Virus record (IMG/VR): IMGVR_UViG_2740892439_000020
Span: 1 to 15,118 of that record
Reading direction: 5' to 3' (one strand)
DNA from: a virus
Lineage: Duplodnaviria > Heunggongvirae > Uroviricota > Caudoviricetes
Length of the DNA stretch: 15,118 nt
The notes under the pieces were generated by a model that saw only the letters and a list, made by a program, of their open reading frames with translations, was not told the DNA's origin and did no database searches. The translations under genes and the position numbers were made by a program. Positions 1-7,176 of this stretch are shown in pieces. How positions within the stretch are numbered: position 1 is the stretch's first letter; each line of letters starts with the position of its first letter.

Positions 1-192
1 TCAGGAGCATTTCTGATTAACGCCACCGTTAAGAATCCACCCTTCAACAGCTTCACGAAGGTATGATTTGGGGTGGGTTCTGACTGGCTTCGGAAATCCG
101 TGGCGTTTGGTATAGTTCCAGATTGTCTGACGTGATGAAACACCGAGCTTGTTCATCACTTCTTTCTCAGGAATCAGGCTGGTATCGGTCAT
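1..192 (-). CDS. xis: excisionase-like small DNA-binding protein (Xis/AlpA-type HTH)
   Basis: 63-aa ORF; ATG at 190-192 with GGAGA 6 nt upstream; basic HTH-like sequence; sits at the distal end of the leftward early operon where lambdoid phages carry xis; its stop codon is the first triplet of the window, so int would lie outside. Confidence 0.55.
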   Translation of the reverse strand: MTDTSLIPEKEVMNKLGVSSRQTIWNYTKRHGFPKPVRTHPKSYLREAVEGWILNGGVNQKCS

Positions 193-206
193 CTTAATTC
201 TCCAGG

Positions 207-231
207 CAAAAATAAACCGCCATATAGCGGC
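207..231 (-). terminator. hairpin + T-tract element (minus-strand RNA GCCGC-UAUAUG-GCGGU then UUAUUUUUG) just upstream of the xis RBS
   Basis: 4-5 bp GC stem with 6-nt loop followed by T-run on minus strand; member of a repeated element family (see findings). Confidence 0.3.
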
Positions 232-271
232 TCTATCAGATATGAACAGGCCTCATCGAGTGTGAGGCGGG

Positions 272-616
272 TTAGTCCTTGCGTAGTTCGCTGATTCTTC
301 TGTAAGTCTCTGGTGCTTTGTTCCCGTACGTCTTCATTTCAGACTTCAACAGAGCAACGAGTGAATCCCATTCGTTGAGGATTCCTTTGAATGCCGGAAC
401 GCGCTTTGCAACCTTGTCGAATGAATCTCTGATTTCTGGAATCTGCTCAACAAGTGCAACGCATCGCCGGAAGTCTGCTGCGTCATGTGGAGCGCCGAAG
501 CTATGACCATAGATATTCTTTTTCAGGCCACATGCGATTGAGGCAAGAGTTGCGCTACTGATGCCAACATCGCCAGTCGATTGCCATTTCAAAACCTTCA
601 TAGCCAAATCTGACAT
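272..616 (-). CDS. hypothetical phage protein (114 aa)
   Basis: ORF in track 272..643; start moved to ATG 614-616 (MSDLAMKV...) because it has GGAGA 6 nt upstream, whereas the first 9 codons of the longer ORF are a translation of the terminator-like hairpin. Confidence 0.5.
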   Translation of the reverse strand: MSDLAMKVLKWQSTGDVGISSATLASIACGLKKNIYGHSFGAPHDAADFRRCVALVEQIPEIRDSFDKVAKRVPAFKGILNEWDSLVALLKSEMKTYGNKAPETYRRISELRKD

Positions 617-627
617 TTCTTGTCTCC

Positions 628-651
628 AATAAAAAACCGCCATCAGGCGGC
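628..651 (-). terminator. hairpin + T-tract element (minus-strand RNA GCCGCC-UGAU-GGCGG then UUUUUUAUU)
   Basis: perfect 5-bp GC stem CCGCC/GGCGG (637-650), 4-nt loop, U-run; lies at the junction of two small genes. Confidence 0.4.
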
Positions 652-810
652 TTGGTGTTCTTTCAGTTCTTCAATTCGAATATTGGTTATGTCTGCATGT
701 GCTGTCTGCGCCCATAGCATCCAGTGGTCATAGCAGTCATTGATGTTCTCTGCTTCGATAACTCTGTTGAATGGCTCTCCATTCCATTCACCTGTGACTC
801 GAAAGTGCAT
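643..810 (-). CDS. hypothetical small protein (55 aa, MHFRVTGEWNGEPFNRVIEAENINDCYDHW...)
   Basis: ORF not in the six-frame track (under 60 aa); ATG 808-810 with GGAGA 6 nt upstream; TGA at 643-645. Confidence 0.4.
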   Translation of the reverse strand: MHFRVTGEWNGEPFNRVIEAENINDCYDHWMLWAQTAHADITNIRIEELKEHQAA

Positions 811-823
811 TTATCATCTCCAT

Positions 824-846
824 AAAACAAAACCCGCCGTAGCGAG
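824..846 (-). terminator. putative rho-independent terminator
   Basis: minus-strand stem CUCGC/GCGGG (one G-U) followed by UUUUGUUUUAU, immediately upstream of the RBS of the 643..810 gene. Confidence 0.35.
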
Positions 847-850
847 TTCA

Positions 851-878
851 GATAAAAGAAATCCCCGCGAGTGCGAGG
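851..878 (-). terminator. putative rho-independent terminator downstream of the 899..1180 gene
   Basis: minus-strand 6-bp GC-rich stem (CCUCGC/GCGGGG, one G-U) with 4-nt loop followed by AUUUCUUUUAUC. Confidence 0.4.
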
Positions 879-898
879 ATAGTTACTTGTTCATATTA

Positions 899-1180
899 TT
901 AATCGTCAATGTATTTTGAGCATTGTGGGCAATCATCAATCCCACAATACGATTCATATGCATCCTTTATTGCGTCGCGGGCTTCAGTAAGAGTATTGAA
1001 TAAGTTGCAGCTATTATCTTTTTGATATAGGTAAGTTCCTAATTTATAAGCAGAAGAAGCATCATTTCCGCTGTCTAAAATTACATCGTTATGGATTCTG
1101 CACCTTGCAAGAACTCCTGATCCCATAAGGGTCTGCATAGCCCATTGCTCTTGATCTTCACACAAATCATGAATGCTCAT
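899..1180 (-). CDS. small Cys-containing protein (93 aa), possibly Ea8.5-like putative zinc-binding protein
   Basis: ORF 899..1198 in track; start moved to ATG 1178-1180 (MSIHDLCED...) which has GAGAGGTG upstream; C-terminal CGIDDCPQC motif; coding region is visibly AT-rich versus flanks; position corresponds to the ea8.5 slot of lambda. Confidence 0.45.
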   Translation of the reverse strand: MSIHDLCEDQEQWAMQTLMGSGVLARCRIHNDVILDSGNDASSAYKLGTYLYQKDNSCNLFNTLTEARDAIKDAYESYCGIDDCPQCSKYIDD

Positions 1181-1294
1181 TTCAACACCTCTCTTCACGT
1201 TTCACACACGTTAAGATTAACAGTGTTTTTACATGCTTTGGAAGATTTATTTTATAAAAACTCTTTTAATACAAATAGATATAATAGTTCACTA

Positions 1295-2065
1295 TTATAG
1301 CTCCTTTAATCGAGGCGGTTCTGGTAGAGGCATCCAGTGGGTTACCTCTTTGAGATACAGGTCTTCGCCATCACCGTCATCCCAAGTTGGATTGCCATCA
1401 TTAAACCAGTCGCCATATACGCCGACCTGAGTGTTGGGGATGTTTGGTGGGTAGTTGTTTTTAAAGTCAGCTGCTAACACATAGCATTGTCGCTCTCCCA
1501 TTTCTGGCATTCGCTCACTACAGCTTATCCAACCATCCGGAGTTACCGGAGAATTGCCAGACAGCTCGTTCAACTTGTAAGTTTGGCTTACAGGTTCGGC
1601 TTCCAGTTCTGCAATGCGCTTCTCTGCGGCTTCCAGCTTCTCGCGCATATCATCAACGTACTCGACCAGAGATCCGCCAGCAGGAATTTCGCACTCCTCG
1701 ACCAGTTGGAAGTAGATATCAGCTGCGGACCGTGTGTTGCTATGCCTAGCGTCGCCCATCTCACCTTCACGAAGAGCATCGCGTTCTGCGGTAAGATTGG
1801 CTATTTTGCTGTCTTTGCCTTCCAGCTCAACACGCAGTTTCCCTACCGTTAGCGCAATATCCTCGTTCTCCTGATCGCGGAGTTTGATGTATTGCTGGTT
1901 TCTTTCCCGTTCATCCAACAATGCCAGCGCGATATCTGGCGAAAAGTGCTTCATAAAATCGTTAAGCGCATTAATTCGCTGATCGAAAGGCATTACAGGT
2001 GCTTCACCAGCAATTTTTGTTTTTTCAGCGATTTCACGAAGCTTTTGATAATCAATCTTGCTCAC
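1295..2065 (-). CDS. Ead/Ea22-like protein with predicted coiled-coil middle and C-terminal DUF551-like domain
   Basis: 256-aa ORF, GTG start at 2063-2065; central heptad-like charged region (LEAAEKRIAELEAE); C-terminal W...RMPE...VTHWMPLPEPP signature typical of DUF551. Confidence 0.55.
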   Translation of the reverse strand: MSKIDYQKLREIAEKTKIAGEAPVMPFDQRINALNDFMKHFSPDIALALLDERERNQQYIKLRDQENEDIALTVGKLRVELEGKDSKIANLTAERDALREGEMGDARHSNTRSAADIYFQLVEECEIPAGGSLVEYVDDMREKLEAAEKRIAELEAEPVSQTYKLNELSGNSPVTPDGWISCSERMPEMGERQCYVLAADFKNNYPPNIPNTQVGVYGDWFNDGNPTWDDGDGEDLYLKEVTHWMPLPEPPRLKEL

Positions 2066-2792: not shown

Positions 2793-3341
2793 TTATTTAG
2801 CTAACTTTTTCCAGATCGCTGAAACGTATTTGGCTTGGTGAATGGCATCATCAAGCGCGTTGTGGCGAGTTCCTTTGAATGGCATATCTCGCTTAGGGTC
2901 GAATCCTATTACCTTCCCAAGTTCGACGATTGTTCTTACGTCGCGGTCATTCCACCACTGCCACGGAACTGGCTGCCCTGTCAGCGAATAACTGTTTCGG
3001 AGAATAACGCAGTCAAATGATGCTCCATTCCCCCAAACCTGAACGAATTTGTGGTTAGCGTTCTTTATGATGAATTCAGATAACCATGAAAGAGCCGTTG
3101 AAAGCTCCTGAGTGTTGCTGGTTAGCGATTTTCTGGCTTCTTCACTCTGTTCCAGCCACCATAAAATCGTTGAAGCGTCAGGACGCGCCCGATATCGCAT
3201 TGATGACTCAAGCGAGATATTTACCGAGAACTCTTCTCCTGTTTCTCCGGTATTCGGGTCAAAGAATACCGCCCCAATAGAAATAACTGGCGCATATGGC
3301 CCGTTGCCCATTGTTTCAAGGTCAACCATTAAGTGATTCAT
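2793..3341 (-). CDS. DEDDh-family (DnaQ-like) 3'-5' exonuclease
   Basis: 182 aa; Exo I motif MVDLET, Exo II WGNGASFDCVIL, Exo III HNALDDAIHQAKY; AAGGA RBS. Confidence 0.75.
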   Translation of the reverse strand: MNHLMVDLETMGNGPYAPVISIGAVFFDPNTGETGEEFSVNISLESSMRYRARPDASTILWWLEQSEEARKSLTSNTQELSTALSWLSEFIIKNANHKFVQVWGNGASFDCVILRNSYSLTGQPVPWQWWNDRDVRTIVELGKVIGFDPKRDMPFKGTRHNALDDAIHQAKYVSAIWKKLAK

Positions 3342-5912: not shown

Positions 5913-6212
5913 TCAAATAAGTGGTTTACTGCCTAATTTCATTTTCTGGCGACCAACACAAGTCACACCCATTTCACTGCGTGGCTTGCGGTAGTAAATA
6001 CGATTCTGTTTACGCTCGATTTCTTCTGCCTTCTTGCAGCGAAGGCTTCCGAGTGATGCTGCTTTGTCTGCTCTGACGCAACCAGAGAGCTTTAGCGCAA
6101 TTTTTCGCGCCAGTGCTTCATTACTGCGTCGCTCGGCAATAAGTTCTGCTCTGCGAGCTTTGTAGCGGCTTTTTGCCGTACCTTTGGATTCTTTCCAGAC
6201 AATGGTTACCAT
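5913..6212 (-). CDS. N: antitermination protein N (phi21-type arginine-rich motif)
   Basis: ATG 6210-6212 with AAAGGAG 6 nt upstream (track ORF starts at 6242 without an RBS); N-terminal ARM GTAKSRYKARRAELIAERR as I recall for phage 21 N; first gene downstream of pL/nutL. Confidence 0.7.
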   Translation of the reverse strand: MVTIVWKESKGTAKSRYKARRAELIAERRSNEALARKIALKLSGCVRADKAASLGSLRCKKAEEIERKQNRIYYRKPRSEMGVTCVGRQKMKLGSKPLI

Positions 6213-6322
6213 GATGGTCTCCTTTAAGTGGCTTTGGCGCATGACGCGTCGAGGTGCTTATCTTCTCGATCGCTGTCTTGCAGCTGCAATTCGCGCCATC
6301 CCCAAAACCACTCAAGTTCTGG

Positions 6323-6500: not shown

Positions 6501-6528
6501 GGAAATAAAAAAGGGGCGAAAGCCCTTA
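6501..6528 (-). terminator. putative terminator immediately after the repressor gene
   Basis: minus-strand GGGC-UUUC-GCCC hairpin followed by CUUUUUUAUUU, starting at the repressor stop codon. Confidence 0.4.
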
Positions 6529-7176
6529 AGGAAGGTTTGCTAGCTTGGCATCAACGACAACGCCAATGATTTTACAGTTCCCATTGATTTCAATCATTGG
6601 GTATTGTGGATTGAGTGGTTTCAGGAATTTTCTACCGGCATCAATAACTAACTTTTTGAATGTCGCCTCGTTTTCTCCTTCAAGTTTGGCGACTACCAGC
6701 TTTCCATTACGTGGTTCGACTTCTGGGTCGACGAGAATAATCATCCCCTCAGGAATACTCAGTCCTGCCGGGGCAGTCATTGAATCGCCTTTAACGTCGA
6801 GCCAAAAAGAGTCTTCAGAACAATCTACCGTTGTGTCGTACCAGTTATCTATTGCACGCCTATGATATGGCTCTACAGCTTCCATCCAACATCCTGCGCT
6901 TACCCAACTAATTAGAGGATATGAACCTCTTGGATCATGCCTGCTGTGATAGGCAATGTTTGAAAGACTATCCTCTCCTTTCAACAGGTAATCAGGGGAG
7001 CACTGCAAAGCCTTGGCTAAGGCCAATAGGTTTTCGCCATTGGGCTCAGTTTCAGATCGCTCCCATTGGGAAATAGCAACATTAGACACGCCAACCATCT
7101 TGCCAAGGGCAGCCTGCCTAATCTTGAGTTCTTTTCTGCGAGCGCGAATACGCTCACCCATCAGTTGTGTATTCAT
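6526..7176 (-). CDS. c2: prophage repressor, C2/CI type (N-terminal HTH, C-terminal LexA-like S24 self-cleaving domain), P22 C2-like
   Basis: 216 aa; N-terminal domain (MNTQLMGERIRARR..QAALGKMVGVSNVAISQWERSE) matches my recollection of the P22 C2 DNA-binding domain; C-terminal Ser-Lys peptidase region (GDSMTAPAG...KLVVAKL...TFKKL); divergent from cro across an operator region. Confidence 0.85.
   Translation of the reverse strand: MNTQLMGERIRARRKELKIRQAALGKMVGVSNVAISQWERSETEPNGENLLALAKALQCSPDYLLKGEDSLSNIAYHSRHDPRGSYPLISWVSAGCWMEAVEPYHRRAIDNWYDTTVDCSEDSFWLDVKGDSMTAPAGLSIPEGMIILVDPEVEPRNGKLVVAKLEGENEATFKKLVIDAGRKFLKPLNPQYPMIEINGNCKIIGVVVDAKLANLP

Follow-up and report, generated by a model that had tools for sequence, protein, structure and literature searches.

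The window analysed here, a 15,118-nt stretch of the virus record IMGVR_UViG_2740892439_000020, is the early region of a lambdoid prophage. All genes in its first 7 kb lie on the minus strand, and this leftward arm encodes a cI-like repressor (6526-7176(-)), an N-like protein (5913-6242(-), with a weak Pfam N_peptide match at E = 2e-4, below the cut-off), a Rad52-like recombinase, SSB, an Rv2179c-like exoribonuclease, an Ea22/DUF551 protein and an Ea8.5-like protein, and then carries ORF55, ORF114 and xis. The rightward arm, on the plus strand, carries cII, O, a DnaB-type helicase gene, nin genes and Q. Based on the gene order of the leftward arm, ORF55 and ORF114 are the last accessory genes before xis (Table 1). 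The window starts exactly at the stop codon of xis, and int falls outside it.

Further features of the leftward arm were observed upstream of the two genes. The Rv2179c-like 3'-5' exoribonuclease gene (window 2793-3341(-), 182 aa, Pfam E = 2.9e-73) follows immediately after those for SSB and the Rad52-like recombinase, in the place that exo occupies in lambda. A very AT-rich spacer of ~100 nt (~33% GC, window 1199-1300) separates the Ea22/DUF551 and Ea8.5-like genes, and neither a promoter nor an Rfam family was found in it. The GC content of the Ea8.5-like gene (35-40%, compared with 44-50% for ORF55 and ORF114) suggests that it is a separately acquired module.

Table 1. Genes, start sites and hairpins at the xis-proximal end of the leftward arm (window coordinates; hairpins written on the minus strand).
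Feature	Position	Strand	Description
xis	1..192	(-)	63-aa short AlpA/excisionase-like HTH gene; GGAGA-N6-ATG start at 190-203
Hairpin between ORF114 and xis	214..233	(-)	GAGCCGCT-ATAT-GGCGGTTT, then ATTTTT; 8 pairs, 4 GC
Stem-loop directly after ORF114 stop	250..268	(-)	GCCTCA..TGAGGC, without T-run; conserved in 434 and 1717
ORF114	272..616	(-)	114 aa; equivalent to phage 434 ORF114, HK022 gp32, phrog_1229
ORF114 ribosome-binding site and start	614..627	(-)	GGAGACAAGAAATG; GGAGA-N6-ATG; mosaic breakpoint at ~627
Junction hairpin	634..653	(-)	AAGCCGCC-TGAT-GGCGGTTT, then T-run TTTATT; 8 pairs
ORF55	643..810	(-)	55 aa; equivalent to lambda orf55/lambdap35, 434 ORF55, phrog_676
ORF55 ribosome-binding site and start	808..821	(-)	GGAGATGATAAATG; GGAGA-N6-ATG
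Second hairpin upstream of ORF55	830..849	(-)	GAACTCGC-TACG-GCGGGTTT, then TGTTTT; conserved in lambda, 434, 1717
tL4-equivalent hairpin	861..880	(-)	ATCCTCGC-ACTC-GCGGGGAT, then TTCTTTT; coincides with tL4 feature in HK022 (X51962) and 434 (M60848)
Ea8.5-like gene, upstream neighbour	899..1198	(-)	Pfam Lambda_ea8_5, E = 1.1e-15

Gene layout and terminator-like hairpins upstream of xis

The two small minus-strand ORFs described in an earlier note on this DNA were confirmed at the coordinates in Table 1, as were the GGAGA-N6-ATG start context that it had ascribed to both, the terminator-like hairpin that it had placed across their junction, and the identity of their neighbours as xis downstream and an Ea8.5-like gene upstream. 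The GGAGA-N6-ATG context, which is common to the starts of ORF55, ORF114 and xis, occurs at five sites in the window against 0.47 expected, and none of 200 shuffles reached five. Codons with synonymous changes outnumbered those with nonsynonymous changes in four of the six close comparisons made for ORF55 and ORF114, and the two are independent, conserved coding genes of the leftward early operon. For the Ea8.5-like gene, the alignment to phrog_6325 begins at residue 7, and the probable start is the ATG at 1180. The xis product matched Pfam Phage_AlpA at E = 0.0032, below the curated cut-off, and phrog_66 ("excisionase and transcriptional regulator") at E = 1.9e-8; its counterparts in related prophages are named as AlpA-family or HTH regulators and lie beside an integrase gene. 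Among the closest relatives (locus L008 342-1692), the AlpA-type xis and the integrase gene converge from opposite strands and overlap at the 3' end of xis, whereas in lambda int follows xis on the same strand.

A longer reading of ORF114 (123 aa, from the ATG at 643) had also been mentioned, with an overlap between the ORF55 stop codon and this start. The overlap exists, but the string is TGATG on the minus strand (TGA 645-643, ATG 643-641, one base shared) rather than the ATGA originally given. The ATG at 643-641 sits inside the four-base loop of the junction hairpin and has no ribosome-binding site, and divergent full-length ORF114 homologues all start with MSDLAMK. Therefore, the 123-aa reading was rejected and the 114-aa reading is taken as the gene.

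Four minus-strand sites show what is expected of a Rho-independent terminator, namely a GC-rich stem-loop with a T-run behind it on the transcribed strand, so that four terminator-like hairpins fall within ~670 nt (214-880). Across positions 1-2200, the scan returned seven terminator-like sites against 2.0 ± 1.5 expected. In folding, the junction hairpin (653-634) reached -13.4 kcal/mol (z = -2.6) and the tandem hairpins upstream of ORF55 (880-861 and 849-830) reached -25 kcal/mol together (z = -3.9); the hairpin at 233-214 (-10.8 kcal/mol) had a z of only -1.0 and is thus not more stable than shuffled sequence. The stem-loop directly after the ORF114 stop reached -9.2 kcal/mol (z = -3.4). The junction hairpin covers the last codons and the stop of ORF55, is identical to the hairpin that immediately precedes the cII site and xis in lambda, and is the part of the locus with the widest distribution among records. 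The 233-214 hairpin has the position of t'I in phage 434. From their sequence, and from annotations in other records, we infer that these hairpins may act as terminators and may do so in an N-dependent manner.

No sigma-70-like promoter was found in 1-2200 on either strand, compared with 3.3 in shuffled sequence, in a scan that detects near-consensus sites only and that a weak or activator-dependent promoter could escape. Rfam and tRNA scans of the region found nothing.

Counterparts in other phages and exchange at mosaic junctions

The locus is already known, with both ORFs annotated in phages 434 and HK022 and orf55 alone in lambda. The order in GenBank M60848 (phage 434) is tL4, ORF55, ORF114, t'I, xis and int, and HK022 carries the same pair (X51962; AF069308 gp33 and gp32). 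Order and orientation of the two ORFs in these phages agree with those in the window, at ~95-97% DNA identity, and the tL4 hairpin, the second hairpin upstream of ORF55 and the ribosome-binding sites are also the same. However, 434 and HK022 have lambda-type xis and int genes after a cII site, whereas the window has an AlpA-type xis, as do Stx phages 1717 and 2851 and mEp234. The sequence of the hairpin after ORF114 also differs between 434 and the window. Between the two ORFs, the 434 hairpin (locus L007 515-550) has a stem mismatch (GGAGG, versus GGCGG in the window) and a longer T-run, suggesting that termination between ORF55 and ORF114 may differ between phages.

Lambda had been described as lacking well-characterised genes at this place; it has orf55 (lambdap35, 29118-29285), the last ORF of the exo-xis region and known by that name in the literature on the region (PMC3824215). 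The window protein is 95% identical to the lambda protein (NP_597778) over 55 aa, and the tandem hairpins upstream of the gene and the hairpin overlapping its stop codon are the same. The match to lambda takes in ORF55 and this hairpin and stops where the T-run ends (window 627); from there lambda continues directly into cII-binding repeats (TTGC-N6-TTGC) and xis, whereas in the window ORF114 is inserted.

Breakpoints recur in many records at window positions 238/242, 271, 627/628, ~641 and ~694. In phage 1717, tL4 and the second hairpin are kept and the sequence then passes from TTTTATGGAGA directly to CAAGAAATG and straight into ORF114, ORF55 and its hairpin having been lost exactly between two copies of TTTTAT(T)GGAGA. 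For P22-like phages, only window 609-689 is common, comprising the final 45 nt of ORF55 with the hairpin, followed by the ribosome-binding site and ATGTCAGA; eaC then takes the place of ORF114 after codon 3, and the eaC product also starts with MSD. The linker of hairpin, T-run and GGAGA is thus more widely common than either ORF55 or ORF114. A stretch of ~80 nt (window 609-694) takes in the 3' end of ORF55 together with the hairpin, its T-run, the ribosome-binding site and the opening codons of whichever gene follows. It is 97-100% conserved in many phages without either ORF, including P22 and phage L (before eaC), HK620, Sf101 and 933W-like Stx phages, and seems to serve as a portable junction.

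Lambdoid mosaicism, both moron-type and linker-mediated, involves single-gene units and short conserved boundary sequences. The genes in the window resemble such units in being single genes bounded by terminators and exchanged at short conserved boundaries, and in having their own terminator and a presence/absence pattern between conserved neighbours. They differ in that no module-internal promoter was detected: a moron would have its own promoter active in the lysogen, and no near-consensus sigma-70 site was found here. The linker in the window pairs a terminator with a ribosome-binding site, compared with promoter and terminator in moron-type mosaicism.

The earlier note had treated ORF55 and ORF114 as a two-gene accessory cassette, possibly toxin-antitoxin-like, and had named co-occurrence across prophages as one check, and a lack of conservation of the pair as a refutation; conservation of the pair was lacking. 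Among 5,426 complete E. coli genomes, ORF55 was detected in 2,195, ORF114 in 915 and the adjacent pair in 296 (~13% of ORF55 genomes and ~32% of ORF114 genomes). Phage records gave a similar result, with ORF55 in 87, any ORF114 relative in 279 and the adjacent pair in 22. Lambda has only ORF55, Stx phage 1717 only ORF114, and phages of Vibrio, Klebsiella and Yersinia as well as actinobacterial phages carry relatives of ORF114 but no ORF55. A type II toxin-antitoxin system is expected to be conserved as an adjacent pair, to have its own promoter with no terminator between the genes, and to show homology to a toxin or antitoxin family. Here most copies of either gene lack the other beside them, no near-consensus sigma-70 promoter was found in 1-2200, the junction hairpin intervenes, and neither protein matched such a family in Pfam, NCBIfam or PADLOC, so that neither the cassette nor the toxin-antitoxin suggestion is supported. 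The term accessory stands: each of the two genes is found in some lambdoid phages and missing from others that are otherwise similar, and the exo-xis region in which they lie is reported to be dispensable for growth (PMC6213356). As first flagged, the locus thus matters little, being a near-identical copy of annotated ORFs whose pairing fails.

Protein families of ORF55 and ORF114

In agreement with the first reading of the two proteins as lacking a recognisable domain, neither had a match in Pfam, NCBIfam or PADLOC at E ≤ 1. Sequence and profile searches of the PDB with both gave non-significant matches only, none of them a toxin or antitoxin.

ORF55 is a 6.5-kDa acidic protein (pI 4.9) that aligns with phrog_676, a PHROG family of unknown function, over profile positions 1-55 of 55 (E = 1.7e-38). 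Homologues reach down to 38-51% identity, and the distant ones lie near N and away from xis. Its AlphaFold2 model (mean pLDDT 89.2) is beta-beta-alpha-beta, with strands at 2-9, 12-19 and 41-49 and a helix at 23-36. The best fold matches are PurS and the ribosomal protein eL20 rather than phage inhibitors, and the fold type is also found in AcrIE2, p56 and Dmd. A profile comparison (hhalign) with a sequence taken to be that of T7 Gp2 gave a probability of 1.7%. No sequence relationship to Gp2, p56, AcrIE2 or Dmd was detectable, and non-phage proteins of the same topology scored higher. The same three-strand, one-helix fold was predicted for lambda Orf55 in a 2021 modelling paper, in which the protein was proposed, speculatively, to modulate RNA polymerase in the manner of T7 Gp2 (Donaldson 2021, PMC8614690). 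Because the Gp2 profile comparison was negative, this idea draws on a generic fold and stays speculative.

ORF114 is a basic protein (pI 9.2) with 94.7% identity to 434 ORF114 and ~95% to HK022 gp32, and aligns with phrog_1229, also a PHROG family of unknown function, over profile positions 1-113 of 116 (E = 4.8e-51). The AlphaFold2 model has seven helices (mean pLDDT 93.6). A profile search among 50%-identity cluster representatives recovered 2,851 relatives at E ≤ 1e-3, and 661 at E ≤ 1e-10, from both temperate and virulent phages, including those of Vibrio, Klebsiella, Salmonella, Yersinia (PY54), Mannheimia, Arthrobacter and Clavibacter. All database names in the family are "hypothetical", no family member matched Pfam, a profile of 72 divergent sequences returned only noise against the PDB, and no literature was found under the ORF name, accession or terminator name. 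The neighbourhoods of 14 distant relatives are arrays of small early genes, sometimes beside SSB, a DUF3799 exonuclease or RdgC, and no consistent neighbour gene was found across these 14.

Seven residues are invariant across the 72 sequences (S20, P43, D45, D48, R51, C52 and W83) and five more are near-invariant (W11, G18, S21, L55 and P60); the family-invariant residues are all present in the window protein. A reading of the invariant residues as an active site was considered. D45-P-x-D48 and S20-S21-x-T resemble helix N-capping boxes, and positions occupied by Trp, Pro and Gly look structural, so catalysis is not implied. We think it unlikely that S20, D45, D48, R51 and C52 form a catalytic or ligand-binding site, beyond capping helices, in this large unnamed family, which is found in phages of both Proteobacteria and Actinobacteria; if they did, it could be a new family of early phage enzymes or small-molecule or nucleic-acid binders, for example in counter-defence.

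Extensions fused to the ORF114 domain are diverse and unannotated, save for one fusion with a CCA-adding enzyme. In this 558-aa protein (P0256, locus L026 37-1713), a phage tRNA nucleotidyltransferase (CCA-adding enzyme) is followed by a C-terminal ORF114-type domain; it was found on one 1.9-kb contig in one sample only. The fusion hints at a link between ORF114 and tRNA repair, and as a clue to function we set it aside as too thin, coming from a single short contig. Two relatives carry a tandem double ORF114-type domain (P0154 and P0284; locus L018 5001-5735), which hints at a dimer as the possible working form of the single-domain protein. Chimeras in which part of ORF114 is joined in frame to pieces of other early genes, namely those for Kil, ERF recombinase, DUF550 pyrophosphohydrolase or Ea22 (P0015, P0017, P0032, P0053 and P0311), are encoded by many E. 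coli prophages and look like deletion scars of decaying prophages.

Proposed single-gene modules and rival explanations

The probable explanation, in our view, is that ORF55 and ORF114 are two independent single-gene mosaic modules at the promoter-distal end of a leftward early (pL-type), N-antiterminated operon, and not a functional pair. Each module consists of a strong ribosome-binding site of its own (GGAGA-N6-ATG), a small ORF and a terminator-like hairpin with a T-run leading straight into the GGAGA of the next gene, and modules are gained, lost or replaced at this repeated hairpin/T-run/GGAGA linker. Since the scan revealed no internal promoter, and with four hairpins in ~670 nt, the two genes would probably be expressed only when an N-like antiterminator makes early transcription terminator-resistant, during infection or induction, and the hairpins may keep unmodified transcription away from xis. 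With the final codons of ORF55 lying in the junction hairpin, a ribosome that reaches the end of ORF55 should weaken this hairpin and so couple read-through into ORF114 to the translation of ORF55. As to function, our best though tentative guess is that ORF55 binds and modulates a host protein, its modelled fold being of a type seen in small phage-encoded inhibitors, and that ORF114 is an early accessory factor working by itself in host takeover or DNA metabolism.

Several other explanations were weighed against two independent modules. A toxin-antitoxin-like or obligate two-protein system, in which acidic ORF55 neutralises or partners basic ORF114, would account for the small-upstream, larger-downstream layout with its one-nucleotide stop/ATG overlap in the long reading, for the opposite net charges of the proteins and for the recurrence of the pair in some phage records and E. 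coli genomes. It is barely credible given that most copies of either gene lack the other beside them, that many phages without ORF55 have members of the ORF114 family, and that the overlapping ATG lies in a hairpin loop; with a terminator between the genes, no promoter-like site before them and no toxin, antitoxin or defence family match for either protein, this reading is unsupported. Where both proteins are present, their opposite charges (pI 4.9 and 9.2) leave room for a physical interaction. Lysogenic-conversion "morons", expressed from the resident prophage to the benefit of the host, are also very improbable: single genes bracketed by terminators between conserved neighbours are the classic moron signature, but no promoter-like site was found in 1-2200 on either strand, the genes are oriented with the repressed early operon, and relatives of ORF114 also occur in virulent phages.

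More room is left for specific functions of the individual proteins. One or both might tune the lysis-lysogeny decision or the timing of excision, like other exo-xis genes; the position immediately upstream of xis and the effect of the whole exo-xis region on lysogenisation and induction (PMC3824215) speak for this. However, the published effects concern the region as a whole and not orf55 alone, a genome-wide lambda CRISPRi screen did not cover lambdap35, and xis is not the neighbour of distant ORF55 homologues or of most ORF114 relatives, so such a role is in our judgement unlikely. That ORF55 inhibits or modulates host RNA polymerase as T7 Gp2 does, as proposed by Donaldson (2021), is a still less likely option, given the hhalign probability of 1.7% obtained with the sequence taken as Gp2. 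For counter-defence, in which either protein, ORF114 especially, would disable a bacterial immune system early in infection, the early-operon position, small size and presence/absence polymorphism are all suggestive, as are Ral and Lar-like anti-restriction genes neighbouring in the same operons, the occurrence of the ORF114 family, within arrays of small early genes, in temperate as well as virulent phages from several phyla, and the fold type that ORF55 has in common with AcrIE2, p56 and Dmd; we regard it as possible, though on the whole rather unlikely.

Read as two independent modules, the locus shows cleanly, at base resolution, how lambdoid phages shuffle accessory genes at a repeated linker of terminator and ribosome-binding site. 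ORF114, in turn, represents a very large early phage family without a Pfam model, a name or a structural relative, and this makes it a reasonable target for experiment.
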